Of a DNA stretch of 21,178 nt, positions 101 to 16,642 are shown one piece after another (position 1 is the first letter of the stretch; every line of letters begins with the position of its first letter). Origin of the DNA: an uncultured bacterium (GTDB lineage Bacteria; Krumholzibacteriota; Krumholzibacteriia; Krumholzibacteriales; WJIX01); NCBI GenBank assembly GCA_964488475.1, contig CAZAUK010000026.1:1-21178 (forward strand), written 5' to 3'. Under the pieces are notes generated by a model. It made no database searches. It was not told where the DNA came from and saw only the letters and a program-made list of their open reading frames with translations. The translations under genes and the position numbers were made by a program.

Positions 101-919
101 TTACTCGGAGTAGATCGATTTTATAGCGCCCCAGCTTCCCCGCTCCGAGTCCACCTGGCCGCAGTCGCCTTCATCGGCGATAAAAGCGCTCCCCTCTCCG
201 TTTTCATCGGTGCCCTGGAATTTTCCCGCGAAGGCGGAAGCCTGCTGCTCGTCGCCTTGAACGATCGAGCAGAGAGAGAGAAAATCATCAGCTGAATCGA
301 GCGTCGTATCCAGATTGCCCAGGCTGATGGTAAAAGCGACCGGTCCCGCGACAACCAGCGGGGAGTAGATATCTCCCTGGGGGACGCAATCGGATAGAAC
401 GTCTATGTCGATGAAGCCGCCCTTTACGCCCTCTTCGGTCTCCAGGGAATTGGTGAAGATGCCGTAGGCGCCGGTTGCTTCCATCTCGGTCAGCTCATAC
501 CAGCCGGAATGGGTCTCATCAGTGGAAAGAGTAGTGCATCCGGGTGGAATCGTCATTCCGTCAATAGTAGTCCCTGTGCTGTAAATCGACGATCCGGCCA
601 GGATCCTGGCTTCCGTGTAAGCCACGCTGGCGGCGGCAGGAACATTGAACATGAAAGCGGTCATCACCGGATTTCCCATGGCCGGGGACTGGAAAGGATA
701 AAGGCCGGAGATGTTTTCAAGGGTGAACTGAACATCGGCCGTTCCGGTTCCAGCGCTGAAATCGCCTCCCGTCTGGGTGAAATCTACATCAACCTCAAAG
801 GCCAGGTACTGTCCGAAACCGGTCTCTCCGGTCACGGTGCGCTGCATAACGTCCGCCTGAAGCAGGGCTGGACATAGCAACAGCGATATAACGAGAATCA
901 AAAAGTTGTTCCTGATCAT
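101..919 (-). CDS. Secreted hypothetical protein (272 aa) with C-terminal tail ...VDSERGSWGAIKSIYSE
   Basis: ORF track; N-terminal signal peptide MIRNNFLILVISLLLCPALLQA; strong RBS GGAGGGG 5 nt upstream of the ATG at 919; Thr/Gly/Ser/Asp-rich mature region. The C-terminal tail is shared with CDS 2835..3302. Confidence 0.75.
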   Translation of the reverse strand: MIRNNFLILVISLLLCPALLQADVMQRTVTGETGFGQYLAFEVDVDFTQTGGDFSAGTGTADVQFTLENISGLYPFQSPAMGNPVMTAFMFNVPAAASVAYTEARILAGSSIYSTGTTIDGMTIPPGCTTLSTDETHSGWYELTEMEATGAYGIFTNSLETEEGVKGGFIDIDVLSDCVPQGDIYSPLVVAGPVAFTISLGNLDTTLDSADDFLSLCSIVQGDEQQASAFAGKFQGTDENGEGSAFIADEGDCGQVDSERGSWGAIKSIYSE

Positions 920-966
920 TTTTACCCCTCCAGAAAATCTTTAAAAACAGAAATCCAATCTGCTTC

Positions 967-995
967 ATTCTAGCATAAATAAGCTGTTTATTCAA
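967..995 (-). promoter_or_regulatory. Sigma70-like promoter for CDS 101..919 (-35 TTGAAT, 17-nt spacer, -10 TAGAAT on minus strand)
   Basis: Minus-strand reading: TTGAAT (990-995 rc), 17 nt, TAGAAT (967-972 rc). The -10 lies about 45 nt upstream of the start codon at 919. The -35/-10 consensus form matches the promoter found upstream of CDS 2835..3302. Confidence 0.4.
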
Positions 996-1066
996 GGGCA
1001 GTTATAAGGCCGCGCCTGTATTCAGCCGCATTCGGGCTCTGTTTTTCGGCCCGGCTTCAATATACA

Positions 1067-2701
1067 CTATTTCATGATAAGGACCTTGCGCGTAAATGAG
1101 CGCTCTCCTATTCGAACCATCACAAAGTAAACACCGCCGGCGAGAGAGCCCCTGCAGCCGGACGCGGGATTCCACTCCTGAACAAACTGGCCTTTTCCGT
1201 GGATTCCTGCTGGAATATCGGACACTTTCCTTCCGGCTACATCGTATATCCCTATGTTTACCTCTTCCCTGTGTCCGAGAATGCAGTTAATGCTGAAACC
1301 GGCGCTGGTTGGATTTGGATAGATCTCCACTTGGTGCGGGAAACCTTCATCCGGCGGGCCGGAGTCTGTCACCACGACCTCCTCGCCGTACAGCAAAGCC
1401 GCGCCTTTGCCTCCTATGTTCCATCCTCCAGCCGCCAGGCTGCCCCCTCCGCCCGAATGCATTGTAAATCTTCCCGCCCCCGCCACCGAAATTCCCAGAC
1501 CTGAAGTGGTATCAGTCCCGACATCGGTGAAGGCCGCGGTGGCGGGCAGAGGATAGGTACCGGTGAACAGGTATACTTTTCCGAGCTGAACAGATGCCCC
1601 TCCATATCCGGGAGCGCCAATTATCATATCGCCGGTTCCATCTCCGTCCACGTCCGTGCTGGATATGGAATACCCGAATTGCTCTTCCATGAATTCTCCC
1701 ACCAGAGCGTCATCAGGTGTTCCGTCGACTATAGCTGCGCCCAGGAAGAAATACACCTTGCCCACATCGTCGCCGAAGAGGGAGTTGTAGTACGGGGCTG
1801 AGACTATATAATCATCTATCGAATCCCCGTTTATATCGCCTATGATTTTTGCCGCCGAGCCGAAAGCGTCTCCTACTGATACTCCTGTCATCTCAGCGTC
1901 GGCAACGGTGTCCATGGCCGCTCCGCACAGGTAGGCGTAAGCCTTTCCCGCCCATATGTCGGATTCATCGTTGCGGGGAGCCCCCACCAGCAGGTCATCC
2001 TCTCCGTCACCGTTTATGTCGCCTCCACAGTCTACTGTATATCCGAAAAAGTCGCCGGCGCCCTCACCGTAAAGAATTAAATCAGGATCCTGGTCCATGG
2101 GATCGCCACCAAAATATATGTATACCGCTCCGGTTGAATCCGCTTCGCAGGCTCCTACCACCAGGTCGTCGAAGCCGTCGGCATTAAGGTCTCCATTTAG
2201 GCACAGACCACGCCCGAAGCGGTCTCCGGAAGCTGATCCCTCAAGGACCAGGTCGGGAATCCCGTCCGGTGAGCAGCCGCCCAGAAAGAGGTACACGCGG
2301 CCGGGATCTTCTGACGCTCCAGAGGCGTATACGGCCACGTCGGAAAACCCGTCGTTGTTGATATCCCCCCCGCCGGCTACTCTTGTTCCCATCCTTTCGC
2401 CGGGGGCTCCGGTAAAGGTAAGGTCGGGAATCGAATCGGCGCTCATCCCGCCAAAATAAAGATAACACCGCCCGGCGGCGTCACCGCCGCTATCTTCCAG
2501 GTTGGCTCCCACCAGCAGGTCCTGGTATCCATCGCCGTTGAAGTCTCCGGCGCCGCAGAGCGAAATTCCGAATTGGTCGCTGATTTGCTGTCCTTGAAAG
2601 GTGGTGATCTTTTCCACCGATTGGGCAGGAAAGCTTATAAAAGATATCAGGAGAAAAGACGCCGAAAAGATCAAGAAAGATATTTTGAAGTAGTATTTCA
2701 T
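1067..2701 (-). CDS. FG-GAP repeat protein with a T9SS type-A C-terminal sorting domain (544 aa)
   Basis: Signal peptide MKYYFKISFLIFSASFLLISFISFPAQS. Many repeats of the form FG.S..GAGD.NGDG..DL.VGA, which are integrin-alpha FG-GAP/VCBS-like. The C-terminus YPNPTSAGFSI...IGIYDVAGRKV...GVYFVMVRIGERSFTRKVLIMK is a classic Por-secretion (T9SS) CTD. Confidence 0.85.
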   Translation of the reverse strand: MKYYFKISFLIFSASFLLISFISFPAQSVEKITTFQGQQISDQFGISLCGAGDFNGDGYQDLLVGANLEDSGGDAAGRCYLYFGGMSADSIPDLTFTGAPGERMGTRVAGGGDINNDGFSDVAVYASGASEDPGRVYLFLGGCSPDGIPDLVLEGSASGDRFGRGLCLNGDLNADGFDDLVVGACEADSTGAVYIYFGGDPMDQDPDLILYGEGAGDFFGYTVDCGGDINGDGEDDLLVGAPRNDESDIWAGKAYAYLCGAAMDTVADAEMTGVSVGDAFGSAAKIIGDINGDSIDDYIVSAPYYNSLFGDDVGKVYFFLGAAIVDGTPDDALVGEFMEEQFGYSISSTDVDGDGTGDMIIGAPGYGGASVQLGKVYLFTGTYPLPATAAFTDVGTDTTSGLGISVAGAGRFTMHSGGGGSLAAGGWNIGGKGAALLYGEEVVVTDSGPPDEGFPHQVEIYPNPTSAGFSINCILGHREEVNIGIYDVAGRKVSDIPAGIHGKGQFVQEWNPASGCRGSLAGGVYFVMVRIGERSFTRKVLIMK

Positions 2702-2775
2702 ATTGCTGCAAAGAGCTCTCTGCTTAAACTATTGAAGAAGCTGCAAGAAAAAATCATTGGTTCTCGTGTCCGGTG

Positions 2776-2813
2776 CAGAAAAGACAAGAAGCGCTCTTCA
2801 AGAGCGCTTCTTG
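2776..2813 (-). terminator. Intrinsic terminator for CDS 2835..3302
   Basis: Near-perfect palindrome CAAGAAGCGCTC-ttcaa-GAGCGCTTCTTG at 2785-2813 (12-bp stem). It sits 22 nt downstream of the stop and is followed on the minus strand by UCUUUUCU (2777-2784). Confidence 0.7.
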
Positions 2814-2834
2814 TCAGATTCAGACAGCTGTAAC

Positions 2835-3302
2835 CTATCTGTATATAGATTTCACCTTGCCCCAGGTTGACTCGTCCGCGTCCACAGGGGAGGTCAGATC
2901 GAATGAGGTCACAAGATTTTCCTCATTAAGATCGATGGTAGCGCAAGAAGTATCAACCGCGGTGCCAAGCTCGGCTGTAACGCAAAGGGTGTATTCACCG
3001 GGGGGTACTTCGTCAGGCAGAGGAAGTTCAAGTTCCTGAACGAAGATTTCGCCGGCGGGCATATATACCTGAATCATGCCGGTTCCGATTTCCTCTCCGT
3101 CTACGGTAAGTGCCACGGTAAGGTCTACCGTTCCTGGTTCGGTTCCGCAGTTCTCAAGCGAGAAGTAAAGCTGCAGAATATCAACAGGATCGCTTTCCAC
3201 TACTTCCGCTCCAAGCTCCACATCGACACAGTCTTCGGCGCTTGCCGGGGCGGCGAAGAAGGCGACAGCCAATACGCTGAAAAGTACCAGTAGATTCTTC
3301 AT
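2835..3302 (-). CDS. Small secreted hypothetical protein (155 aa) with C-terminal tail ...VDADESTWGKVKSIYR
   Basis: Signal peptide MKNLLVLFSVLAVAFFAAPASA. RBS AAGGGGGTGA upstream of the ATG at 3302. Acidic and beta-rich sequence. The tail is shared with CDS 101..919. Confidence 0.75.
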   Translation of the reverse strand: MKNLLVLFSVLAVAFFAAPASAEDCVDVELGAEVVESDPVDILQLYFSLENCGTEPGTVDLTVALTVDGEEIGTGMIQVYMPAGEIFVQELELPLPDEVPPGEYTLCVTAELGTAVDTSCATIDLNEENLVTSFDLTSPVDADESTWGKVKSIYR

Positions 3303-3390: not shown

Positions 3391-3688
3391 GGCTGGAATC
3401 GAGATCTTCGGCCCCGGCTGTTCCATCGCGCAGAGATGTAATCGGGCACATCGACTGTAAGCGCAGTTTCCAGCGGATGGCGAAGTGGACCGTAAAGTCT
3501 CTGTGGTTGAAACTTGGAAAGCATTTAAAATCTTCTTTTAAGATCTGGACGCATGGTATAAACCCGATTCCCGCCGGAAGCTTCGGGAAAGGAAGAACGA
3601 AGCTCCGGCCGGTGCTTATTGTCTTTTTAAGGCGCCGGGTATCGCGGCGCCTTTGAACGGCGCGGATTTTAAAGATGGAAGGAGAGAG

Positions 3689-4087
3689 ATGTCAGTAAGA
3701 AAAATTACGGTTTTATTTCTCGCTGTTATGGCGATTGTCCTATTCGCCGCCGACATCTATCCCAAGTGCGAGACCGCGGAATATATCGAGAACAGGGACA
3801 GGGAGAAGGAGGAGAATAAGGTCAGCGCGATGGTGCACGAGAGCCTGATGTACAGGCATTGGAACACCTACGACGACGGAAAGAGCCAGCACCTGTTTCA
3901 CATTCCAGCCGGTGGAGGTGACTGGAAGGACCTTACCCCCGGCTTGAAGTTCGACGCTCTCACCTACTGGCTCGCCTCGGCGGGAAGGGACTTCGATCTT
4001 TCTCCCGACGGCAAGACGATATATTTTTCAGGCAAACAGGCTGAGGACCAGGCGGTCTCCTACAACGAGGAGATCTGGATGGTATAG
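3689..4087 (+). pseudogene. N-terminal fragment of an S9-family peptidase with a PD40/TolB-like beta-propeller, truncated at 4087
   Basis: RBS GGAAGGAGAG before the ATG at 3689 (the track ORF begins at 3653). N-terminal TM/signal KITVLFLAVMAIVLFAA. Motifs ESLMYRHWNTYDDGKSQHLFHIP and LSPDGKTIYFSG resemble the first propeller blades of S9C acylaminoacyl / dipeptidyl peptidases. The ORF stops after 133 aa at the edge of an inserted cassette, and a collinear C-terminal remnant lies at 4829-4989. Confidence 0.55.
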
Positions 4088-4113
4088 CACAAAATCAAGC
4101 CGTTGTTTCTATA

Positions 4114-4584
4114 TCAGTCTGAATTCTGTTCTTCTGAGTTCTTCAGAGACTGCAATGCCTCCGCATCAGCTAAATCCTTGGTTCTTCCTGAGGCCTTCTT
4201 ATTTCGAATAAGGTCATCAATTAATGGAATGCGCACATCGATTCCTTCAATCTTCAGAGGCATGGACCGGTTATAGACTTCTTTAAATTGAAGCCCCGAC
4301 GCCGTAGTAATTATGTCGATTCGCCTTGGAGCGACTCCGATCTGAAAAATGGTACCATCTGTCTGGAGGTCTTTCCTTGTTAAATTATGCAGAGGAGAAC
4401 CGAAGCGGCGCAGTGCCCGCATCACGGCGTCAGCGTTTTCTGGTGATGGCATAATCCAAATGTCAATATCCATGGTGGCCCGGGGATAACCGTGAGCTGC
4501 CATTGCATAAGCTCCAACAAGAAGAAATTTAACCTTCTCGTTGGACAAGGCGTGTAACATTTCTTTGTAGTCTTCGTTCAGCAT
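4114..4584 (-). CDS. Small Pol-beta-superfamily nucleotidyltransferase (MNT-like, 156 aa), possibly the toxin or antitoxin half of a TA-like module
   Basis: NTase signature LLVGAYAMAAHGYPRATMDIDIWI, i.e. hG[GS/A]-x13-DhDh. The basic C-terminal segment is RNKKASGRTKDLADAEAL. GC content is visibly lower than in neighbouring genes. Confidence 0.6.
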   Translation of the reverse strand: MLNEDYKEMLHALSNEKVKFLLVGAYAMAAHGYPRATMDIDIWIMPSPENADAVMRALRRFGSPLHNLTRKDLQTDGTIFQIGVAPRRIDIITTASGLQFKEVYNRSMPLKIEGIDVRIPLIDDLIRNKKASGRTKDLADAEALQSLKNSEEQNSD

Positions 4585-4720
4585 CGTATTTTTTGCTGAG
4601 AGACGTTATCTCTCTTGTCAGAATCCATACAAGTTTAATGCGGTCTGCCGGATTGCCGGGAACAAAATCATCATCCCTGATATCCGACATCTGGTATAAA
4701 GATGTTTTTTTTCTATCCAT
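4529..4720 (-). CDS. Small ORF (63 aa, or 52 aa from the ATG at 4690) overlapping the start of the NTase gene; possible partner protein
   Basis: ORF track only. It overlaps the NTase start by 56 nt in a different frame. A possible promoter TTGCAG-16-TAAAAT sits immediately upstream, at 4721-4748 on the minus strand. I see no recognisable domain and no strong RBS. Confidence 0.2.
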   Translation of the reverse strand: MDRKKTSLYQMSDIRDDDFVPGNPADRIKLVWILTREITSLSKKYDAERRLQRNVTRLVQREG

Positions 4721-4828
4721 AATTTTAATATACCAGTTTTAACCTGCAATATCAATCGGATAGCTGTTTTGTGGACTTTCCCCATTTTTTCAGGTGAAGT
4801 CGAACAAGTTCCCTTGATTACGTTTTGA

Positions 4829-4989
4829 GACGGCCTTCTCCTCCCTTTCTCTCCGTCAAAAATGATCCGTTTTCCCGACGAGAACCATTGGATCCTTCAG
4901 CCTCATAACCAGAGGTTCTGGTATGCCTCTATCCTGGACTGGTTCGACCAGTGGCTGAAGCGGGGGGGCGAGCCGAAAGAGCAAGAGCC
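4829..4989 (+). pseudogene. C-terminal remnant of an S9 peptidase, including the catalytic-His region
   Basis: Translation DGLLLPFSPSKMIRFPDENHWILQPHNQRFWYASILDWFDQWLKRGGEPKEQEPEE*. It aligns with the C-terminus of the intact S9 peptidase in this window (MVRYPGEGHGNRKQPGRIDVLYRHLQWYDWYVK). It has no start codon and is bounded upstream by a stop at 4826-4828. It is in the same frame as the N-terminal fragment 3689..4087. Confidence 0.55.
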
Positions 4990-5132
4990 CGAGGAATAGG
5001 TTTTAGCTCTTTTTGCCGGTGGGTGGAAGATGAAAGATGTCATGGAGCCCGAGGCGCTTTATGCTTAGTGCCGGCATACCGGCCGCGGGCTCAAAGCCGG
5101 CGTTATGGGTCCAGCGCATTGGGGAGGGCTGG

Positions 5133-5507
5133 TCATTCCAGGCCCTCCCTGAAGTCCTCTTCGATGATCTCCTCGATTCGGCGGTCGTCCTCGTCGGTGC
5201 GGATAAGTTCCCGGACCCGCTCGAACTCCTCCTCCACTTGCTTTCCAAAGGTCTGGACAGTGATGAAGGTCCTCTTTCCGCTGTTGATCCTCTGAAAACG
5301 AAGCTTTCGAAGAAGGGATTCGTAAGTCTTGTTGGAAGTGTATCCGGATAGAGTATAACGGGTTACGAACTTTCCGCATTTGGCGCATTCCACGTAGACC
5401 TTTATGTTCTTTCCCTTGCAGAAGTACATCTTGTTCTTCATCTCGGTAGACCCGCAGTGCTCGCAGCGTTCGGTGCGGGCGGTTTCCTTTTTACTTCTGC
5501 AGTCCAT
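5133..5507 (-). CDS. Zinc-ribbon hypothetical protein (124 aa)
   Basis: RBS AAGGAGAG upstream of the ATG. Two CxxC pairs (CEHCGS...CAKCGKF). The C-terminal half is acidic/basic. I chose this ORF over the overlapping ORFs 4951..5295, 5037..5351 and 5065..5388 because it alone has an RBS and a recognisable motif. Confidence 0.55.
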   Translation of the reverse strand: MDCRSKKETARTERCEHCGSTEMKNKMYFCKGKNIKVYVECAKCGKFVTRYTLSGYTSNKTYESLLRKLRFQRINSGKRTFITVQTFGKQVEEEFERVRELIRTDEDDRRIEEIIEEDFREGLE

Positions 5508-8744: not shown

Positions 8745-9569
8745 TCATGGCCCCGTTAGTTCGATAAGGCGCCTGGAAAAGTTGAATCCGCCTATTTGAG
8801 ATACGATTGACCTTTTTCCAGCTGTAAAGGGAAAGTTTATCAGCTCCGGCCTGCCCGCCGGGCTCAGCGAAACATTCTCCAGAAATTCGCCACACTTCAG
8901 GATAGAGGACGGCAGGGTAGCGAAGAACATGAAATCTATCAGCCCTTCCGCTTCCCTCTGGTCGACAGAGCACATAACGGACCTTCCGGGAATAACAGAA
9001 GGATCTGTCTTAAAGACGGGCTGGTTCTTGGTAAAGAACCTTCCGGCCTTAAGATACGCGAAAGGATTGCGAGCCGGGAATGCCGGGACATAGACTCTGA
9101 AAGAGCCGGCTGATTCGATGCTGGAAAGAAGCGTTTCTATCTCCCTGCCGCCGGGGGCGGCTTTCCGGTTGGAGAGGCCCGCGAGCATTCTCAGCCTTGC
9201 CGTTCCAGAGCCGGATTCAGTAGCGCTCGCATCTTCAAGTTCCCCGCCATTTTCGATCCTGCCGGCGGCTATTTCTCCAACTGTTTTCCTGATTCTTTCC
9301 AGGGATCTCAGCATACGGATTCTGAGCTGAACCGTGTCTATTTCAATCGACCAGAAGGGGAGAAATATAGAATCATCACTGATTCCGTCATTCGGAAGGG
9401 CGCCGCGTATTCTGATTTCTTTAAGGCCGCTTCGGGATATTATGAAATAGTTATAGCAGCCGGCGCATTGAAAGGTGATGCATTCCGGGTTCCCTTCCAG
9501 AGCTGATCCGCATCTTGGGCAAACGAGTCTTTCTATGGTAAGGGATCCGTTCATATCAACTTCCTTCAA
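8745..9569 (-). CDS. N-terminal zinc-ribbon protein, paralog 1 of 3 (274 aa, no TM)
   Basis: CPRCGS...CAGC ribbon followed by a conserved PFW segment (IFLPFWSIEI). It overlaps the stop of the upstream gene by 14 nt, consistent with translational coupling. RBS GAAGGAAG. Confidence 0.65.
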   Translation of the reverse strand: MKEVDMNGSLTIERLVCPRCGSALEGNPECITFQCAGCYNYFIISRSGLKEIRIRGALPNDGISDDSIFLPFWSIEIDTVQLRIRMLRSLERIRKTVGEIAAGRIENGGELEDASATESGSGTARLRMLAGLSNRKAAPGGREIETLLSSIESAGSFRVYVPAFPARNPFAYLKAGRFFTKNQPVFKTDPSVIPGRSVMCSVDQREAEGLIDFMFFATLPSSILKCGEFLENVSLSPAGRPELINFPFTAGKRSIVSQIGGFNFSRRLIELTGP

Positions 9570-10662
9570 ACCATCTGCTCAGCCTGTGCTTGAGCCAACG
9601 GTGCGGGGCAATGACTCCGCCGCTTTTGACCTGGTCGGCCGTGTAGACAAGGGCGGCGGCGATGATCACCAGGGGAAACCAGGTGCCCGCCAGAAAGGCC
9701 AGCGCGGCCGGCACGAAAAAAAACGGAGCGGGATTTATCGTTTTTCTTTTGGGGACGTCGGAGCGGATAACAGCGCCGCTGGAGCCGTCTATTGTTATAA
9801 CGTGTATGATATCCCTGAACTTGTAGCGGATCAGGTAGACCGGGTAATAGTAAAGGGACAGGGATTTGCCGAACAGGTTGAATCTTCCGGCGTGGATTCT
9901 GGAGCCGGAGGGCTTGGCCAGGTTTATTGAATGTTTCAGGCAGTCGGCTTCCGCTTTCTTTTCTCCTGTCATGGGAATAGCGATATTCATGGAGGCCTTG
10001 AGGTCGTGGTTGAATACCTCCCATTCAAGAAGGGAGGCTCTGAGGGCTATTCCCTGAAGCCCGAGGTATCTTAGAACGCAGGCCGGGGCGCTCCAGTCCA
10101 CGCGCCTGGTTATGAATTTGGAGAAAGGATGTTTGACCTCCCTCACCGTTGTCGTGGTCATCTCTCCGTTTGGAGTGGCTACCGGCTTTTCGATCTTTTT
10201 AAGCTCGACCCGGTCTCCGCAGATCCATCCCATGAATCTTCCTCTCATCTTCCAGAAAGGCACGTAGACCAGCTTTTCCTCCATGATGGAAGTGTGTTTG
10301 GCTTTTACCAGGTCACCGCTCTCCTTGGAAATATGACGAATAGCGGTGAGCCTGGCCTTGCCCCCGGTTATTTCAGGCTTCAGGTAGAAGCTTCTGACTC
10401 CTCGAGGATCAGAGACGTACAGCCCGGCCCCGCAGTATTCACATTCCAGGCTCTTTACCCCTTCCGAGACTCTCAGCGATCCTCCGCATGACGGGCAGAG
10501 GGCTCCAAAAGTCTCCCGGGCAGCCGGCCGACCGGGGTCAGGTTCCTTTCCCCGGAACCGGCTTTCCGATACTGATGCTGCTACAGGGTCGAAGGCCGAT
10601 TGAAAACCTTCAGCCAAGCCGTGGCCCGGAACGCCCTTCTGGTAAAGAGTATGGTCATTCAT
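9556..10662 (-). CDS. Zinc-ribbon protein, paralog 2 of 3, with a C-terminal TM anchor (368 aa from M42 of the track ORF)
   Basis: Start trimmed to ATG 10662 because it forms an ATGAATGA overlap with the stop of the upstream CDS 10655..11359. Ribbon CPSCGG...CEYCG. Conserved YVPFWKMRG segment. C-terminal hydrophobic stretch FFFVPAALAFLAGTWFPLVIIAAALVY. Confidence 0.6.
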   Translation of the reverse strand: MNDHTLYQKGVPGHGLAEGFQSAFDPVAASVSESRFRGKEPDPGRPAARETFGALCPSCGGSLRVSEGVKSLECEYCGAGLYVSDPRGVRSFYLKPEITGGKARLTAIRHISKESGDLVKAKHTSIMEEKLVYVPFWKMRGRFMGWICGDRVELKKIEKPVATPNGEMTTTTVREVKHPFSKFITRRVDWSAPACVLRYLGLQGIALRASLLEWEVFNHDLKASMNIAIPMTGEKKAEADCLKHSINLAKPSGSRIHAGRFNLFGKSLSLYYYPVYLIRYKFRDIIHVITIDGSSGAVIRSDVPKRKTINPAPFFFVPAALAFLAGTWFPLVIIAAALVYTADQVKSGGVIAPHRWLKHRLSRWFEGS

Positions 10663-11359
10663 TGGAGGCCGCCAACTTGCCGCGAAGCTTGAAAAACAAA
10701 AATCCGGCCGCCGCGGCCGCTCCCAGCAGCACCAGCCTCGGCAGGGTTCCACCGGCCAGCCGGCCCAGAAAAAGGTAGCCGGCAAAAAGAGCGCCCGCGG
10801 CGATTATTCCGGGCTTATCCAGAGGTTCGGCTTTTCTGGGAGGCAGGCGGTCAATCTGAACCCACCAGCTTTCCCCGATGACCGCAGCTTTCCAACGCCT
10901 TTTGGACAGGTTAAAGGAGACGTCATAAACCGGCAGGTATATTATTCTGGAAGCGTCAGGGTCGACGGCGGAAGGCCTGATTATTTTTTCTCCCCCGGCC
11001 AGTTCCTGGTCAAAGTAGCAGTAATCGCCGGCGGGTGGATCCGGCATAGGCCCGACAGATGAAGGAGCGTCCCCGCTGGGGCAGGCGCTGTTGCCTCCAT
11101 CCTGATCTTCTATGATGAAGAATGGGGCGAAGGCGAATTTAATTCTGATGTTTTTGGCTCGTCCCATGTTTCGTTTCAGAAGAAACGACTCAAGTACATC
11201 TTCCGCGGTGCGGTCGTTCCTCTGGTGGGGAAGAATAAGCTGTTCCCCGCGGCCGCCGTCTTCCACGGTAAGGGCTGAACCGCAGTAAGAGCACCTCATC
11301 ATGCTCTGTCCTGGATGAACCCTGTTTTCGCCGCCGCATAGATCGCACTTGACCAGCAT
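10655..11359 (-). CDS. Zinc-ribbon protein, paralog 3 of 3, with a C-terminal TM anchor (234 aa)
   Basis: Ribbon CDLCGG...CSYCGS. FAFAPFFIIED segment. C-terminal hydrophobic stretch IIAAGALFAGYLFLG...LVLLGAAAAAGFLFF. It starts 2 nt after the stop of the SPFH gene (TAGAAATG). RBS GGGAGA. Confidence 0.65.
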   Translation of the reverse strand: MLVKCDLCGGENRVHPGQSMMRCSYCGSALTVEDGGRGEQLILPHQRNDRTAEDVLESFLLKRNMGRAKNIRIKFAFAPFFIIEDQDGGNSACPSGDAPSSVGPMPDPPAGDYCYFDQELAGGEKIIRPSAVDPDASRIIYLPVYDVSFNLSKRRWKAAVIGESWWVQIDRLPPRKAEPLDKPGIIAAGALFAGYLFLGRLAGGTLPRLVLLGAAAAAGFLFFKLRGKLAASNE

Positions 11360-11361
11360 TT

Positions 11362-12507
11362 CTAATCTCCCTGAACCCTTTCACCACAGTTTGTGCAGAA
11401 CTTCGTGCCGGGCGGCAGCTTGGCCCCGCAATGCCGGCATTTCAGATCCTCGCTCAGTTCTTTTCCGCAGTTGGAACAGAATCTGGCTTCCCCGGGCAGC
11501 TCCGTATGGCATTCGGGGCACCTGTTCATGGAGATGAGCTGGGCGCCGCAGTTTCTGCAGAACCTCGAATCGGATGAGACCTCATTGTGGCAGCGGGGGC
11601 AGTTCAGTTGCCCGGCCGCTGCTTCGCCCTGTCCGGCCGGCCGCCCCGTGACCGCCTGGGCGAGCATTCCGGGCATCATCATTCCCAGACCGGCTCCCAC
11701 TCCTATTCCCATTCCGCCGGCCGCGGCGCTTCCCGCGCCGCCGGTCCCGGCGCCGGTTGCTGCGTCCCCCATCGCTTTGGCCGCCTTGAACTTGAAGAAA
11801 CTGTCAAGATTTCCCACCGCCTGAAGCCCGCTCCTCTCGTCGATCATCTTCTGCACCTCGGCCGGAGGAGTAATGGAATTTATATACAAGTCCACCAGCT
11901 CCATGCCGTACTTTGAAAAGTCGTTTTCAAGACGGTTTCTTATTTCCACGGCCAGCTCGTCGTAATTCTGCGGAAGCTCGAATATGGTGTCGAGCTGCTC
12001 GCCGAACAGATCATTGATTCTGGAGACGATCACGTCTCTTAAATAGTTCCCTATCATCTCGCTGGTGTACACGCCCTGGGTCCCCACCACGTGGTTTATA
12101 AACAGGACCGGTTCCCTGATCTTGAAGGTATAGAGCCCGAAGGCCCTCAGCCTTACCAGACCCAGCTTGCTGTCCTTAAAGGCCACGGGATCCTTGGTCC
12201 CCCATTTCTGGCTTAGGAAGGTCTTCATGTTTACGAAGTAGACCTCGGCCCTGAAGGGACTTTTGAACCCCCAGGGAAGTGAGAGGACCTTGGTGAGAAT
12301 GGGAAGGTTTTTAGTGGTCAGAGTGTGGCGGCCGGAACCGAAAATATCCAGTCCCTTACCGTCCTTGAAAAAAACGGCGCTCTGGTTGTCTCGAACCACC
12401 AGCTGGGCCCCCATCTTGATTTCGGCTGATCCTTCAGGGGGCAGCCGGTGGACGATTTCTTGCCCGCTCTGGTCGAACCATTCCAGTACTTCCATAAACT
12501 GAGACAT
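11362..12507 (-). CDS. SPFH/Band-7 (Band_7_1, YdjI-like) domain protein with a Gly/Ala/Met-rich linker and three C-terminal zinc ribbons (381 aa)
   Basis: The start is set at M6 (ATG 12507), which follows the RBS GGAGGAAAG. N-terminal segments [18 protein letters not shown] and [27 protein letters not shown] match my recollection of the Band_7_1 family, often mis-annotated as 'virion core protein'. The C-terminus carries CPRCH..CRNCG, CPECH..CSNCG and CRHCG..CTNCG. Confidence 0.75.
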
Positions 12508-12860
12508 CTTTCCTCCATTCACTGTGTTTGTTATCTGTTATAATCACTGCGCTTAAGTGCGCCGGCGGCTTCATCCGCCGGGACTAGCCATAAAAATCAT
12601 CGTTGCTTATTTTTTCGGGTATATTCCATTTGAGCAAAGGGAGTGCCAAAATTCACCCTGCCCTGGAGTTATGGAGGAAAGCCCGGCCGCCGCCGGGCAA
12701 AATCTGTCTGGACAACCGATTTATATATTTTAATATATATGTAGCGCCACCGGCGGCCCGGTAAAGAATGATGAATATCGGTCTCCGCTGTGGGTCAGCC
12801 GCTTGAAAGAAGCAGCCGCGATGGCTGGGGGCAACGGTTTTAACAGGGAAACGGCCTGAG

Positions 12861-14582
12861 ATGAAATCATATATTCTGCCTTCGATCGTTCGGTATTTCA
12901 TATATCCCTTTTACCGGGGTTTTAGAAAGGACAGGGTTCTTTCCATACTGGATGAACTGGAGCGGAACCAGTGGCTGTCCTTCGAAGAGATAGAGGATAT
13001 CCAGTGGCGGAGGCTGATAGGCCTGCTCAAATACGCCGTCCTGCACGTACCCTATTACCGGGACCTCTTCAAAAAAAGAGATATTATGGCGGACCAGATT
13101 GAAAGTGCCTCCGATTTCAGGAAAATCCCTTTTCTTACCAGAAATCTGATCAGGGACAACAGCCGGGAACTGGTAAGCGGGGATCCCCTGCGCAAGGGTT
13201 ACGTCGCCAGCACGGGCGATTACGCCGGAGAGCTTCTTGATGTTTTCTGTGATTACTCGGCGGGGCCGGTCCGGCGTGCCAACACCTTAAGGCAGCTCAG
13301 GGCCGCAGGTGTCGACATAGGCGAGAAACAGCTGTATCTGGTAGGGTTTCAGAGTGACAGGCCGCTCAAAGAGCGCTTTAAGGAAGGGATCAAGGATTTT
13401 TTCTATAACAGAAGATTCCTTTCCGCTTTCGATATGTCGGAAGACAACATGAAAAGGTACGCTTCGGTGGAGCGTTCCTACAGGCCGTCTCTGGTAGTGG
13501 GGATTCCATCGGCCCTCACCCTTTTCTCGAAGTTCTGCCTTAACAATTCGATAGAGCTTCATACCCCCAAAGCGATCTTCACCAAGGGAGAGACTCTATA
13601 CCAGGATCAGAGGGAAATGATCGAGAAAGCGTTCTCGGCGCCGGTGTTCAACCGGTACGGATCTAGAGAGTTCGCCGAGGTAGCCTGCGAATGCGAAAAA
13701 CACGACGGAATGCACCTGTCAAGCGATCTGTTCTACGTGGAGGTTGTAAGGCCCGGCGGCGGGCCCGCCGCTCCCGGGGAAGAGGGGGAGCTGGTGATCA
13801 CCGATCTTTCAAATCTATATATGCCTTTTATTCGATACAGGACCGGCGATAAGGCCGTTCAGTCGGACAGGCAGTGTTCCTGTGGAAGGGGGCTTCCTCT
13901 CCTGGAAGGTATAGAAGCCCGAACGGTGGACTCGGTGAGGACGCCGGGGGGAAAGGTGGTTCCCGGTTTTTTCTGGATGTGGCTGTCCAGGACAGTACCC
14001 GGAGTCAAAAGGTTCCAGGTGGAACAGATGAAGTTGTCCTCCATAAATTACAGGATGATTCCCGGAAGGGGCTGGAAGGATGAATACGCTGAAGAGCTCA
14101 AGAAAAAAATTAGAGCTAACTGCGGAGAAAACATGAGCGTTAATATGATGATCGTTGATGAGATACCGGTATCTGAAAACGGCAGGGCCCGGTTCATGAT
14201 TTCTAATATAAAGGATAGGCTGGTAATAAAATCAAAGATTCACAAGGCGAACGTTACCGGGGTAGAGCCCGGCCTCAATGACTGTTTGCGGATCGACGCC
14301 GAACTCATGGATCTGGCGGACATATCTGAATACGAGAAGATACTCATAGTCAACAGCACCAACGGTTCCCGCCTGGAGACTTTCGCTGTCAGGGGAGAAA
14401 GGGGGACCGGGGAGATAGTCTCCTGCGGTGGAGTTTCAGCCCAGGTTTCCAGGGGAGATGAGATAGGCGTCATGGCATTCACCTGGTCCAGCGAACCGGA
14501 AAGCGCCTTCAGCAACATTCTGGTGGATGAAAAGAACAGGTTCTCGCGTTATCTTACCGAGACGGCTGGAGATAAGATTTAG
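12861..14582 (+). CDS. PaaK/CapK-family adenylate-forming enzyme (phenylacetate-CoA-ligase-like) fused to a C-terminal PanD-like, probably non-catalytic, domain (573 aa)
   Basis: The N-terminal roughly 440 aa show the PaaK/CapK/F390-synthetase-like signatures: WLSFEEIEDIQWRRLIGLLKYAVLHVPYYRDLF, IRYRTGD and EARTVDSVRTPGGKVVPGFF (the A8-like R.DD.....G..V.P). The C-terminal roughly 125 aa align along their whole length with aspartate 1-decarboxylase. Confidence 0.75.
   Translation: MKSYILPSIVRYFIYPFYRGFRKDRVLSILDELERNQWLSFEEIEDIQWRRLIGLLKYAVLHVPYYRDLFKKRDIMADQIESASDFRKIPFLTRNLIRDNSRELVSGDPLRKGYVASTGDYAGELLDVFCDYSAGPVRRANTLRQLRAAGVDIGEKQLYLVGFQSDRPLKERFKEGIKDFFYNRRFLSAFDMSEDNMKRYASVERSYRPSLVVGIPSALTLFSKFCLNNSIELHTPKAIFTKGETLYQDQREMIEKAFSAPVFNRYGSREFAEVACECEKHDGMHLSSDLFYVEVVRPGGGPAAPGEEGELVITDLSNLYMPFIRYRTGDKAVQSDRQCSCGRGLPLLEGIEARTVDSVRTPGGKVVPGFFWMWLSRTVPGVKRFQVEQMKLSSINYRMIPGRGWKDEYAEELKKKIRANCGENMSVNMMIVDEIPVSENGRARFMISNIKDRLVIKSKIHKANVTGVEPGLNDCLRIDAELMDLADISEYEKILIVNSTNGSRLETFAVRGERGTGEIVSCGGVSAQVSRGDEIGVMAFTWSSEPESAFSNILVDEKNRFSRYLTETAGDKI
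14196..14579 (+). other. PanD-like domain within the fusion protein (residues ~446-573)
   Basis: IKSKIHKANVT aligns with PanD LKSKIHRATVT, so K9, H11, R54 and T57 are conserved. The cleavage/pyruvoyl site G24-S25 is replaced by D-C (codons GAC TGT at 14280-14285). Y58 is F, and the N72 of NGAAAH is C (CGGVSAQ). An in-frame ATG at 14196 lies just upstream of the domain. Confidence 0.65.
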
Positions 14583-14583
14583 A

Positions 14584-14640
14584 CTGTCCCGGCCCCGATA
14601 TAAATTTCAACCTGTATCAGGAGGGAGACAGGTTTTATTT
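14584..14640 (+). terminator. Possible weak intrinsic terminator after the PaaK-PanD-like fusion gene
   Basis: CCTGT-(12-nt loop)-ACAGG at 14611-14632, followed by TTTTATTT (14633-14640). An alternative outer pairing is CTGTCCC / GGGA(ga)CAG. The stem is short, so this call is weak. Confidence 0.3.
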
Positions 14641-14927
14641 CATCCCGGCCCGGCATTAGGATCACGTGCCGCTTTGAAACCGGTATAGGATTCAACCAGC
14701 ATCCTGCGGTAGTCCGGATTCATTCCATCTCGCCCCGGGAATAAAATTCGCCTCATCCCTGCCGGTATTTTTTTCTTTGCCTTTGTTTTTAATAATTATT
14801 AAATATATTTTATACGAAGCCACCGTTATTCAGAATTACCGGCCGCCGATTTAAGCTTGGAGGTTTTCCGGCTCCCGGCGATAACCGGCGGCATATTACA
14901 CAAGATGTTTTTAAAGGGAGCGCTTCT

Positions 14928-15287
14928 ATGAAAAGGCTTCTTCTCAAATCGATGATATTAGACGCCAGGGTTACCCAGGCCGACCTTCGCTACGTGGGAA
15001 GCATAACCATAGACGAGGATCTTCTGGAAAAATCGGATCTGTCCGAGCATGAGAATGTTCATGTCGTCAACAGGACTAACGGCAACAGGCTGCAGACTTA
15101 CATCATAAAAGGGGAGAGGGGTTCGGGAGTCATATGCATGAACGGCGCGGCAGCTCACCTGGTCAACGAGGGCGACCATATAGATATTATGACCTTTTCC
15201 TGGTCCGAGGATGAGGCCCGGCCGCTTTTTATAAAGCTGGACGGGAAAAACCGCTTTCTGAGGTACTGCGGCAGTGATGAGATCTGA
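14928..15287 (+). CDS. panD: Aspartate 1-decarboxylase (PanD) zymogen, 119 aa, with non-canonical M9/L11
   Basis: Colinear with E. coli, B. subtilis and M. tuberculosis PanD: ...VTQADLRYVGSITIDEDL...NGNRLQTYIIKGERGSGVICMNGAAAHLV. G24-S25, R54, T57, Y58 and N72 are conserved, but position 9 is M (canonical K) and position 11 is L (canonical H). RBS AAGGGAG. A 60-bp AT-rich block at 14780-14822 upstream is a likely promoter region. Confidence 0.85.
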   Translation: MKRLLLKSMILDARVTQADLRYVGSITIDEDLLEKSDLSEHENVHVVNRTNGNRLQTYIIKGERGSGVICMNGAAAHLVNEGDHIDIMTFSWSEDEARPLFIKLDGKNRFLRYCGSDEI

Positions 15288-15321
15288 CACCGTCTTCCTC
15301 TGATTCCCGGAAAGGAAAACA

Positions 15322-16449
15322 ATGCTGAAGAAGAGCCTGCGCCTGTTCCAGCTGTGGGGGATACCCGTAGAGCTGCACGTGAGCTGGCTGCTCATCCTGG
15401 TGCTGATAACCTGGAGCTTCGCCACAGGGTTTTATCCCGCCAATTATCCCGGGCTTTTTTCGTCCTTGCAGATTTGGGCCATGTCGCTTCTTACCGCCGT
15501 TCTACTTTTCATTTCAATCCTCCTTCACGAATTCAGCCATTCGCTGGTTGCCAAGCGAAACGGCCTGCCCATAGGAAAGATAACTCTGTTCATGTTCGGA
15601 GGGGTGGCCCAGATGAAAAACGAGGTGGAAAGTCCCGGGGTAGAATTGAGAATGGCCTCGGCCGGCCCTGTCATGACCCTGGTGCTGGTGGGAGTCTTCT
15701 ATCTGCTTTCCCGGCTGCTGTATGGGGTCACATGGCTTTCCGTGCTGTTCCAGGCTCTTTCCAGTATCAACGCCGTCGTTTTCATATTCAACATGGTGCC
15801 TGGATTCCCCCTGGATGGGGGCAGGATTCTGAGGGCCTTGATATGGTACAAAAACGGAAATATTCTTAAAGCCACCAGATTCGCCAGCATGATCGGCAAG
15901 GGTTTCGCCCTTCTATTAATGGCATTCGGAGTTTTCAGCGTGCTGGTTTACTCCAACTTCATAGGAGGGATATGGCTGGTGATAATCGGTGGATTCCTGA
16001 GACAGGCGGCAAACAGGAGCTACAAGATAGTTCTCTACAGACAGGTGCTGGAAGAAATGGATCTGGAGGATATAGTAAGGCGGGATGTGGTCACGGTGAA
16101 TCCCTCGATGAATCTGGAGGCTCTGGTAAACGAATACTTCAGAAGATACCAGTATTTTTCATTCCCGGTCGTGGAGAACGGATTCCTGATAGGACTGGTA
16201 TCGATAGATGACGTAAAAAAGGTAAAAAAGACCTCATGGGCGGATACTATAGTGGCGAGGGTGGTCAACACCAGGCTGCGGGAGTTTGTCATTCACGGTT
16301 TTAATTCTCCGGGCAGGCTTTTTCAGCTGATCAACTCGAACAAGTACGATAATTTTCCCGTAGTGGACAGCACCGGGACTCTGCGCGGAATCATAAACAG
16401 AAGCGATTTCGAAAAAGCGGTCAAGGTCACCCTCTCCCTGAGCAGATAG
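15322..16449 (+). CDS. M50-family site-2 protease with a C-terminal CBS-domain pair (375 aa)
   Basis: HEFSH (HExxH) in a TM segment; second S2P motif NMVPGFPLDGGRIL (the LDG motif); multiple TM helices. The C-terminal roughly 130 aa show two CBS-like repeats (VVTVNP..., FPVVENGFLIGLVSIDDV, FPVVDSTGTLRGIINRSD). RBS AAAGGAAAACA. It starts 34 nt after panD, suggesting an operon. Confidence 0.8.
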   Translation: MLKKSLRLFQLWGIPVELHVSWLLILVLITWSFATGFYPANYPGLFSSLQIWAMSLLTAVLLFISILLHEFSHSLVAKRNGLPIGKITLFMFGGVAQMKNEVESPGVELRMASAGPVMTLVLVGVFYLLSRLLYGVTWLSVLFQALSSINAVVFIFNMVPGFPLDGGRILRALIWYKNGNILKATRFASMIGKGFALLLMAFGVFSVLVYSNFIGGIWLVIIGGFLRQAANRSYKIVLYRQVLEEMDLEDIVRRDVVTVNPSMNLEALVNEYFRRYQYFSFPVVENGFLIGLVSIDDVKKVKKTSWADTIVARVVNTRLREFVIHGFNSPGRLFQLINSNKYDNFPVVDSTGTLRGIINRSDFEKAVKVTLSLSR

Positions 16450-16468
16450 GCTGGCAACCACCCTCACA

Positions 16469-16521
16469 GTATAGCGGCGCGATACGGTATAGCGGCGCGA
16501 TACATTATAGCGGGCCGATCC
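16469..16521. repeat. Tandem dyad-symmetric repeat, about 2.5 copies of GTATAGCGGCGCGATAC
   Basis: Copies at 16469-16485 and 16487-16503 are identical; a degenerate third copy TATAGCGGGCCGATCC lies at 16506-16521. Each unit is an imperfect palindrome with half-sites GTATAGCG and CGCGATAC. It lies between the convergent 3' ends of the M50 gene and the lipoprotein gene. Confidence 0.6.
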
Positions 16522-16576
16522 GGCCGACTATATGCCTCAAAACGGTTAGCAATGCCTGCCATTTGATTTTCGTCGG

Positions 16577-16614
16577 GCGGCTGCCGTAAAGCCGCTTCAT
16601 GTTTACCAGCGGCT
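16577..16614. terminator. Overlapping alternative stem-loops; possible bidirectional terminator between convergent genes
   Basis: GCGGCT-gccgtaa-AGCCGC (16577-16595) is followed by TTCATGTTTACC on the plus strand. Alternatively AGCCGCT-tcatgtttacc-AGCGGCT (16590-16614) is followed by UUUAC on the minus strand. The U-tracts are poor. Confidence 0.3.
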
Positions 16615-16642
16615 GATACGGGCCCTCCCAACGTTACCCGCA

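Follow-up and report, generated by a model that had tools for sequence, protein, structure and literature searches.

Two otherwise unrelated secreted proteins, encoded in a 21,178-nucleotide stretch of DNA from an uncultured bacterium of the Krumholzibacteriota (GenBank assembly GCA_964488475.1, contig CAZAUK010000026.1), end in the same short tail. We refer to the whole of this stretch as "the window", to the two proteins as P1 and P2, and to the tail, with its motif W-G-x-I-K-x-x-Y-R, as "the tag". It looks like a new form of a familiar feature, the C-terminal sorting or anchoring tag, and an unusual one, having neither a transmembrane (TM) helix nor a folded domain. There is good support for its being modular, C-terminal and read by another component. 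More specifically, we lean toward the view that it is a short linear peptide that serves in sorting or docking and is recognized in trans by a single conserved component of the cell envelope. With about the same confidence, we regard P1 and P2 as two tagged cargo proteins in a small secretome island, which they share with a classical cargo protein of the type IX secretion system (T9SS), the FG-GAP repeat protein encoded between them.

One tail on two unrelated proteins

P1 ends in ...CGQVDSERGSWGAIKSIYSE and P2 in ...SPVDADESTWGKVKSIYR, each followed by the stop codon (Table 1). When the two proteins are compared by BLASTP, the alignment covers 15 residues only (VDSERGSWGAIKSIY/VDADESTWGKVKSIY), and a profile–profile comparison of the P1 and P2 families aligns 21 C-terminal columns and nothing else. 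The coordinates and both comparisons agree with an earlier note on this DNA, which had described two otherwise unrelated secreted proteins with a common tail. The pattern WG.[IVLM]K..[YFW] occurs at two sites only in the six-frame translation of the window; these are the P1 and P2 tails, both ≤10 residues from a stop. Similarly, the back-translated pattern TGGGGNNNNRTNAARNNNATHTAY has two matches in the window, as compared with 0.00 expected from 100 shuffles. The DNA sequences encoding the two tails differ at synonymous positions; therefore, the tail is not a DNA repeat, and its conservation is at the protein level, as had been proposed.

Both proteins have typical Sec signal peptides, as read from the sequence. 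The signal peptide of P2 is kept across the family alignment, and that of P1 is modeled by AlphaFold2 with a helix at residues 2–14. The tail is a lasting feature of both families. P1 has 43 homologues, which come from Krumholzibacteria and Eisenbacteria; the tail is present in all that are full-length. Of 11 P2 homologues, from Krumholzibacteria metagenome-assembled genomes (MAGs), ten have the tail; one homologue is truncated, and one has a degenerate tail. The bodies of P1 and P2 orthologues diverge to <50% identity while the tail is kept.

The protein encoded between P1 and P2 was said to be T9SS cargo, and this is borne out by Pfam and NCBIfam: it has six FG-GAP repeats (PF01839, E = 2.5e-42) and a T9SS type A C-terminal domain (CTD) of the Por_Secre_tail/TIGR04183 type (PF18962, E = 4.9e-07; TIGR04183, E = 5e-09). 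By contrast, P1 and P2 have no match to CTD profiles. Nor do their tails resemble the PEP-CTERM, GlyGly-CTERM and LPXTG signals, since they have no hydrophobic stretch and no match to an NCBIfam CTERM model. On both points the earlier note was correct.

Anatomy of the tag

Among 128 ORFs (open reading frames) that end in the tail, the consensus is [C/G]-P-[TV]-P-[VT]-E-x-x-[ST]-W-G-x-[IVL]-K-[AS]-[LMI]-Y-R-COOH, i.e., ~16–18 residues with a core of 10; PTPVEETSWGAIKALYR is an example of the tag peptide. W and K are invariant (128/128), with K never replaced by R, while G is found in 126 and Y in 122 of these ORFs. The last residue is Arg in 115/128 tails, which places Lys at position −5. The same logo is obtained from 25 tails that were not forced by the search pattern, and these pattern-independent tails end 0–4 residues after Y (R, RD, RE, K, KN, GK, RTR and similar). 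In ORFs of ≥100 amino acids, the motif lies ≤4 residues from the stop in 141 of 145 occurrences, and three internal occurrences are pattern matches with TGG (Trp) at the position of the stop codon. An Eisenbacteria ORF in locus L116 (~3597–3620, plus strand) has TGG in place of the expected stop (...SWGRLKAAYRW) and runs on for ~30 residues; an error in sequencing, a mutation of the stop codon or a genuine extension could be the cause. As the earlier note had it, the tail is hydrophilic and without a TM segment: the 10-residue core has a net charge of +2 and a mean Eisenberg hydrophobicity of −0.09. The linker before the core is slightly acidic, with an abundance of T, P, A, V, S and E.

We built AlphaFold2 models of P1 and P2 on their family alignments. 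For P1, the mean predicted local distance difference test score (pLDDT) is 84, and the folded part, which is beta-rich, spans residues ~23–249; the tag (residues 256–272) has pLDDT <50, with residues 263–271 drawn as a helix at low confidence. For P2, the model is a single immunoglobulin (Ig)-like beta-sandwich at residues 26–138, followed by the tag (residues 139–155) as coil with pLDDT <50. The tag is thus predicted to be unstructured on its own and to lie outside the folded domain. We rejected the idea that the tail is the end of a larger domain: it lies past the last folded element, and the profile alignment covers the tail only. No model in Pfam or NCBIfam (June 2026 release) covers the tail, and P1 is without any match. 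A search of PDB sequences with the tail profile gave no matches, and a literature search found neither the motif nor a description of such a signal in these phyla. The tail therefore does not belong to a larger known domain, an outcome that the earlier note had allowed for, and the author's failure to recognize it as a described motif is matched by Pfam, NCBIfam, PDB and the literature.

The bodies themselves say little. Foldseek relates the P2 body to generic Ig-like accessory domains and CARDB. A fold search with the P1 body found no convincing solved relative; a resemblance to beta-pore-forming toxins (gamma-hemolysin, Epx1; Foldseek E ~1e-4) was set aside because a TM-score of ~0.25 is not meaningful. 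The P1 family has conserved Cys residues and no annotation.

Carriers of the tag

If the tag is an address label, its carriers should be exported. A signal-peptide-like hydrophobic N-terminus is found in 78% of tail ORFs, as compared with 19% of background ORFs (≥200 amino acids, same loci), so that the signal-peptide bias for which the earlier note proposed to look is present. Few carriers are lipoproteins (e.g., in L013, L065, L096 and L124), the lipobox being found in a minority.

The bodies are diverse. In a Pfam survey of 122 carriers, most had no Pfam domain; the remainder included lamin-tail domains and right-handed beta-helices (7 each), PMP repeats (4), NHL propellers, MAM domains and pectate lyases (3 each), phosphoesterases (2), and FG-GAP, cohesin and cupredoxin domains (1 each). 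No NCBIfam model is common to the tails of the carriers. Some carrier bodies match NCBIfam choice-of-anchor W, V and J domains, and others are related to proteins that carry PEP-CTERM (ScyF), GlyGly-CTERM (ExeM) or rhombosortase- or myxosortase-dependent tags. The tag therefore follows "choice-of-anchor" logic: one tag is found on many unrelated exported bodies, and the bodies also occur with other tags.

The same logic extends to the T9SS CTD. Some bodies have paralogues that differ in their C-terminal module, one ending in the tag and another in a T9SS CTD, as seen for a cohesin-like pair (L001), a lamin-tail-domain pair (L033) and beta-helix proteins. The L001 pair is a natural "choice of anchor" pair: the two cohesin-like paralogues are adjacent (3707–4255 and 4273–5142, both on the minus strand), and one has an SWGxLKxxY tag while the other has a FlgD_ig/T9SS CTD. 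We saw no protein in this sample with both a tag and a T9SS CTD, and CTD models are not among the 25 most frequently matched families of the 122 tail proteins. Paralogues with one or the other, and no co-occurrence, are the pattern of a modular C-terminal address label. We consider the modular-tag reading well supported because of the signal-peptide bias, the occurrence of the tail beyond P1 and P2 and its separation from any larger domain.

Tails from the same genome also resemble one another. At variable positions, the similarity is 0.271 for tails on nonhomologous bodies of one genome and 0.188 for tails of different genomes; the observed value was reached in 0 of 2000 label permutations. 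Greater likeness within a genome is what co-evolution with one genome-encoded reader predicts.

Internal, tandem and N-terminal copies

The exhaustive profile search described below is dominated by rare proteins with 2–4 copies of the motif (P0059–P0073). These fall into three groups: (i) in P0060, P0061 and P0063, which by eye are possibly NTF2-like, one copy of the motif immediately follows the signal peptide and another is C-terminal; (ii) in P0059, P0062, P0066 and P0067, it follows each of two duplicated domains; (iii) P0064, P0065, P0068, P0070 and P0071 have 2–4 tandem tails. At the Y-R end, internal copies show more degeneracy than those at the C-terminus, and none of the 128 tail ORFs of the loci is a multi-copy protein. 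The tandem, internal and N-terminal copies argue that the motif is a binding element able to act away from a free C-terminus, the canonical functional copy being C-terminal. A position-tolerant docking motif would account for these rare copies better than would a cleavage signal confined to the C-terminus. The protein at the top of the profile-search list, P0058 (925 amino acids), by eye resembles a phage tape-measure protein; it has six GWSALKALYRWSPLG repeats, which mimic the tag and which we consider unrelated to it.

Distribution across genomes

We scanned one genome per GTDB species (596 Gb) with the pattern TCNTGGGGNNNNNTNAARNNNNNNTAYMGNTRR, i.e., S-W-G-x-[hydrophobic]-K-x-x-Y-R-stop, for which ~140 chance matches were estimated. 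The scan found at least 120 loci; ~112 of the 120 listed, a sample that may be nonrandom, coincide with the end of a long ORF. Outside the P1 and P2 families, the tail closes >120 ORFs of other genomes, whose bodies are unrelated; with the orthologues of P1 and P2, these ORFs dispose of the concern, voiced in the earlier note, that the tail might occur in these two proteins only.

By label, the 120 listed loci comprise 35 from Eisenbacteria, 9 from Fibrobacteraceae/Fibrobacter, 8 from Krumholzibacteria, 3 each from Cloacimonadota and Gemmatimonadota, 2 from Latescibacteria, and 1 each from Coatesbacteria and Effluviviaceae; a further 46 are labeled as unclassified "bacterium". Eight are chance matches without a long ORF, in Lachnospiraceae, Mucilaginibacter, Nocardia, Cryomorphaceae, Herpetosiphon, two Methylococcales and Streptococcus. 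The last 4 have real tails under odd labels: genuine tail proteins are found in L026, L060, L079 and L082, binned as Woesearchaeota, Saccharimonadaceae, Udaeobacter and Actinobacteria. These are probably mis-binned contigs from the Fibrobacteres–Chlorobi–Bacteroidetes (FCB) group, and the tag could therefore serve as a contamination marker. Among the matches listed, all true ones that have a phylum label are from FCB lineages. Tag-bearing sequences at or near genome completeness include OY970342.1 (Eisenbacteria), OY970173.1 (Latescibacteria), CP070633.1 (Coatesbacteria), OZ244210.1 and GCA_034520215.1 (Krumholzibacteriota).

Profile searches add little to the count. A 40-column tail alignment found 3 candidates only in a 5.8-billion-protein collection, and a hidden Markov model (HMM) of 16 tail positions found 16 matches at E ≤ 0.001 among 1.84 billion representatives. 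The HMM matches are few because a single copy scores too low, leaving the multi-copy proteins to dominate; thus, the list of 16 is informative on those proteins and useless for counting carriers.

Genomic context

Tail genes are often clustered: L029 has a tandem run of four, and L057 and L054 have three apiece. Near orthologues of P1 and P2, other, unrelated tail proteins are encoded in L001 (two) and in L003, L128, L129 and L131 (one each). T9SS cargo is also frequent: 32 of the 120 listed loci encode CTD-like proteins, 37 in all, with FlgD_ig in 32, Por_Secre_tail in 16 and FG-GAP repeats in 5 of the 37. All-against-all clustering of neighbors in the 120 listed loci, for which we used crude gene calls that are noisy in high-GC loci, returned only CTD cargo, histidine kinases and sigma factors. 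We regard the association of tail genes with T9SS cargo as suggestive.

Gene order around P1 and P2 is partly conserved. The window has the order P2–FG-GAP-CTD–P1, and the P2/FG-GAP-CTD pair is conserved in three Krumholzibacteria genomes, i.e., in the window, L001 (10001–12243) and L127 (10001–12227). P1 homologues adjoin M43, M6 or S8 peptidase cargo or other tail proteins: the order is M43-CTD–P1-like–another tail protein in L003 and S8-CTD–P1-like–M6-CTD–215-aa tail protein–FG-GAP-CTD in L129. In the latter locus (13624–16798), the 215-aa tail protein before the FG-GAP-CTD gene is apparently unrelated to P2.

Two further observations concern individual loci. First, in L080 (601–5533, minus strand) and L077 (2–4675, plus strand), a ~400-aa tail protein of unknown family is encoded directly upstream of a gingipain-/PorU-like C25 peptidase of 1138 amino acids, with Propeptide_C25, Peptidase_C25 (E = 3.7e-63) and a T9SS CTD; the pairing in two genomes may be a coincidence or may point to a processing enzyme. 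Second, a bacteriophage exclusion (BREX) cluster (BrxA, BrxB, BrxC and a methyltransferase; L001 15611–20471) lies a few kb downstream of the P2 orthologue on a 1-Mb Krumholzibacteriota contig.

Possible mechanism

We propose four steps by which the tag could act. A carrier would be exported by Sec, and its body would fold in the periplasm such that the tag is exposed on a flexible linker rich in Pro, Thr, Ser and Glu; these two steps are supported by the data above. The cationic-aromatic tag (W...K...Y-R) would then be bound in trans by a single conserved envelope component, and, as a result, the carrier would be sorted to or retained at the outer membrane or cell surface. If an envelope component does sort or retain the carrier, the tag would fill the same slot as the T9SS CTD or PEP-CTERM on "choice-of-anchor" proteins.

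The leading candidate for the reader, which we put forward tentatively and consider rather unlikely to be the right one, is a lineage-specific adaptor or shuttle of the type IX secretion apparatus. The FCB group is the only group reported to have T9SS, and T9SS CTDs have a "motif C-t." with a conserved Lys near the C-terminus that tolerates short extensions (PMC11285876). A T9SS-linked reader is favored because of the apparent FCB-only distribution of the tag, the proximity of its genes to those of CTD cargo, with which the carriers also share domains, and the resemblance to "motif C-t."; it is disfavored by the absence of Bacteroidota from the true matches listed and by the tag's lack of a fold. 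If the reader does belong to T9SS, the system would be able to accept a linear peptide in place of a folded CTD.

Several points weigh against one conserved reader or, more narrowly, against its link to T9SS. First, no conserved non-cargo neighbor was found in the 8-kb neighborhoods of the 120 listed loci. In this respect the earlier note's proposal, a sorting, processing or anchoring signal used by a dedicated machinery, holds only in part: the modular tag on exported proteins stands, and a dedicated machinery was not found in these loci. Second, CTD genes occur near tail genes at ~1 per 30 kb, which may be no more than their usual density in these genomes. Third, there is no true Bacteroidota match among those listed, despite the large share of the collection that Bacteroidota make up; a core T9SS component cannot be the reader. 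Fourth, the apparent FCB-only distribution has to be read with the 46 listed loci that have no phylum label and the 4 oddly labeled ones. Fifth, amino-acid composition or undetected paralogy could partly explain the within-genome similarity of tails. Lastly, internal, tandem and post-signal-peptide copies are unusual for a secretion signal and fit a binding module better.

Stepping back from any one reader, it is a serious possibility, if short of a probable one, that FCB phyla other than Bacteroidota (Eisenbacteria, Krumholzibacteria, Fibrobacterota, Cloacimonadota, Gemmatimonadota and Latescibacteria) have an undescribed sorting system. Its label would be the unfolded, 10–18-residue SWGxIKxxYR-COOH without a TM segment, either as a minimal type IX signal for a lineage-specific adaptor or as the mark of a new export or anchoring machine. 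Whether the tag marks a new machine hinges on finding the reader.

Alternative explanations

An unlikely alternative, though one to be taken seriously, is that the tag is a noncovalent envelope-binding module for an abundant nonprotein polymer (lipopolysaccharide/O-antigen, capsule or peptidoglycan), by which carriers would stay cell-associated once exported by another route, e.g., the type II secretion system. Tandem copies would then raise avidity, as in Gram-positive choline-binding or GW repeats. The conservation of both aromatic (W, Y) and basic (K, R) positions, the net positive charge, the position-independent and tandem copies in the multi-copy proteins, the predicted lack of structure of the tag alone and the lack of a linked reader gene in the 120 listed loci are all consistent with polymer binding. 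Against it, a single copy of ~10 residues is very small for a polymer, multi-copy proteins are rare and their internal copies are degenerate at the Y-R end, and the cross-phylum invariance of W, G and K, with no exchange of K for R, suggests a precise protein pocket.

Less likely again is that the tag is a protease or transpeptidase site, i.e., that a C25 (PorU- or gingipain-like) or other envelope peptidase cuts at or close to it or that an L,D-transpeptidase links its Lys to peptidoglycan. The C-terminus of E. coli Lpp, ...KYRK, is linked to peptidoglycan through its Lys, and the tag likewise has an invariant Lys and a Y-R pair at its end. Lipoprotein carriers could then connect outer membrane and wall, processing could take place at the internal copies that separate duplicated domains, and a tail gene is directly upstream of a C25 peptidase gene in L077 and L080. 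However, the terminal residue of the tag is Arg, with Lys at position −5; lipoproteins are a minority of the carriers; and the carriers include pectate lyases, nucleases and adhesin-like repeats, which one would look for outside the cell and not attached to the wall. Moreover, C25 adjacency is seen in only 2–3 of the 120 listed loci, where the peptidases may be mere T9SS cargo.

We consider it very improbable that the tag by itself anchors proteins to the membrane as an amphipathic helix, in the way that PBP5/6, MinD and FtsA use their C-terminal helices. The low-confidence helix in the P1 model and the spacing of W, I, L and Y, which is compatible with one helical face plus a cationic flank, would fit such an anchor. 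The helical hydrophobic moment of the core, however, is 0.43, as compared with 0.35 ± 0.16 in shuffles (32% of which equal or exceed it), and its Wimley–White interfacial energy is only −0.76 kcal/mol. Because the core is no more amphipathic than shuffled sequences and is predicted to partition weakly, we do not take the tag for an autonomous anchor. The P2 tail, in addition, is modeled as coil, and sequence invariance across phyla is atypical of lipid-binding helices.

The earlier note also suggested that the tail docks onto the neighboring FG-GAP surface protein. The conserved P2/FG-GAP-CTD pair and the unrelated tail protein before the FG-GAP-CTD gene in L129 speak for a specific docking tag of this kind. 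As a general explanation it is not supported: the tag is found in >100 loci, mostly without an FG-GAP neighbor, and only 5 of the 37 neighboring CTD proteins have FG-GAP repeats. In addition, one tail protein itself has FG-GAP repeats, and P1 homologues adjoin peptidase cargo or other tail proteins. We give this explanation as little credence as the amphipathic anchor. Finally, that the similarity is due to chance or to the end of one larger homologous domain can be dismissed almost entirely, since nothing but the shortness of the motif favors it, and the tail alone is shared, lies outside the fold, is attached to many unrelated bodies and has 0.00 matches expected in the window.

Other features of the window

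The earlier note described sigma-70 promoters for both small genes and a terminator after P2, and promoter-like sites 5' of both genes and a terminator-like site after P2 are present (Table 1). The rest of the window encodes a DASS transporter, a PAP2 phosphatase, an SPFH/zinc-ribbon cluster, PanD-like genes, an M50 protease and an S9 peptidase, with no obvious sorting machinery among them. The first protein of the four-gene SPFH/zinc-ribbon cluster (8745–12522, minus strand), encoded at 11362–12522, is an SPFH/Band-7 protein with three C-terminal zinc ribbons; the other three have no significant Pfam family, with one sub-threshold zinc-ribbon match, and by eye they have CxxC motifs and hydrophobic C-termini. 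A 573-aa protein (12861–14582, plus strand) has a C-terminal PanD-like (aspartate decarboxylase) domain at residues 454–560 and no Pfam match in its N-terminal 450 residues. It is followed by a stand-alone PanD-like gene (14928–15287, plus strand).

Table 1. Coordinates of P1, P2 and associated features in the window
Feature	Position	Strand	Description
P1	101–919	minus	272-aa secreted protein; beta-rich body of unknown family and C-terminal tag
P1 signal peptide	854–919	minus	Residues 1–22, MIRNNFLILVISLLLCPALLQA/DV; predicted cleavage site at the slash
P1 tag	104–154	minus	Residues 256–272, VDSERGSWGAIKSIYSE; core WGAIKSIY at 110–133
P2	2835–3302	minus	155-aa secreted protein; single Ig-like/CARDB-like beta-sandwich and C-terminal tag
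P2 signal peptide	3237–3302	minus	Residues 1–22, ...AAPASA/ED; predicted cleavage site at the slash
P2 tag	2838–2888	minus	Residues 139–155, PVDADESTWGKVKSIYR; core WGKVKSIY at 2841–2864
FG-GAP repeat protein	1067–2701	minus	544 aa; T9SS type A CTD at residues 460–542 (nt 1076–1324)
Sigma-70-like promoter match 5' of P2	3362–3390	minus	TTGACA-17-TAGAAT, extended TG; 11/12; consensus match only
Weaker sigma-70-like promoter match 5' of P1	967–995	minus	TTGAAT-17-TAGAAT; 9/12; consensus match only
Intrinsic-terminator-like hairpin directly 3' of P2	2783–2815	minus	15-bp stem and T run

Comparison with known systems

The tag shares several properties with the T9SS type A CTD (TIGR04183/PF18962/FlgD_ig). 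Both are C-terminal labels on unrelated Sec-exported surface or secreted proteins; the CTD is confined to FCB phyla, as the tag may be, judging from the phylum-labeled matches listed; and they occur in the same genomes, often in adjacent genes, and on paralogous bodies. In both, a Lys lies a few residues from a basic C-terminus, and 1–4 extra residues are tolerated (PMC11285876). They differ in that the CTD is a folded Ig-like sandwich of 70–100 residues, whereas the tag has 10–18 residues that are predicted to be unstructured; P1 and P2 have only 17 residues past the last folded element, with low pLDDT, and CTD HMMs (TIGR04183, PF18962 and PF13860) do not match their tags. Unlike the CTD, the tag has no true Bacteroidota match among those listed and can be internal, tandem or at the mature N-terminus.

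The tag also resembles short peptides that are bound by a partner or ligand. The secretin S-domain recognized by pilotins and the TonB and TolB boxes are, like the tag, disordered, conserved peptides of 10–20 residues; they are bound by a folded partner and direct localization. Each serves one family, whereas the tag is common to dozens of families. Gram-positive choline-binding repeats and GW modules have aromatic and basic residues and C-terminal tandem copies, which are rare for the tag. Those repeats are folded and need several copies, whereas a single, apparently unstructured copy is the rule for the tag; moreover, the phyla that host the tag are generally regarded as diderm. Braun's lipoprotein (Lpp), ending in ...YRK, has a Tyr-Arg pair near a critical Lys at an exported C-terminus, as does the tag, but its Lys is last and it is a lipoprotein, whereas the tag has Arg last and Lys at −5, on carriers of which a minority have a lipobox.

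Three other kinds of C-terminal element can be told apart readily. Outer-membrane beta-barrels (BAM substrates) have a beta-signal in which hydrophobic residues alternate and the last residue is aromatic, whereas most tails end in Arg and the tagged bodies are soluble sandwiches, beta-helices and propellers rather than beta-barrels. Type I secretion signals comprise ~50 nonconserved residues on proteins without a signal peptide, whereas the tag is short and conserved and its carriers are of the Sec type. Amphipathic-helix anchors are set apart from the tag by both hydrophobic moment and predicted membrane partitioning.

Lastly, PEP-CTERM/exosortase, GlyGly-CTERM/rhombosortase, MYXO-CTERM and LPXTG/sortase systems each use, like the tag, a short signature on many unrelated secreted proteins, and signals of the PEP-CTERM type are likewise lineage-restricted and found on "choice-of-anchor" bodies. 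Those signals combine a motif with a hydrophobic TM helix and a basic cluster, whereas the tag has no hydrophobic segment and ends 0–4 residues after Y, and, unlike them, it has no known dedicated enzyme. The tag marks exported proteins in large number and of diverse kinds, among them enzymes, adhesin-like repeats and many of unknown type, and most of its hosts are without a cultured representative. A tag profile would immediately flag carriers in the annotation of MAGs and would provide a handle on the reader, through partner phylogenetic profiling or peptide pull-down. C-terminal tags of this kind allow the surface proteome to be predicted from sequence alone, and it was through such tags (LPXTG, PEP-CTERM, GlyGly-CTERM and the T9SS CTD) that, in each case, a dedicated envelope machine was discovered.

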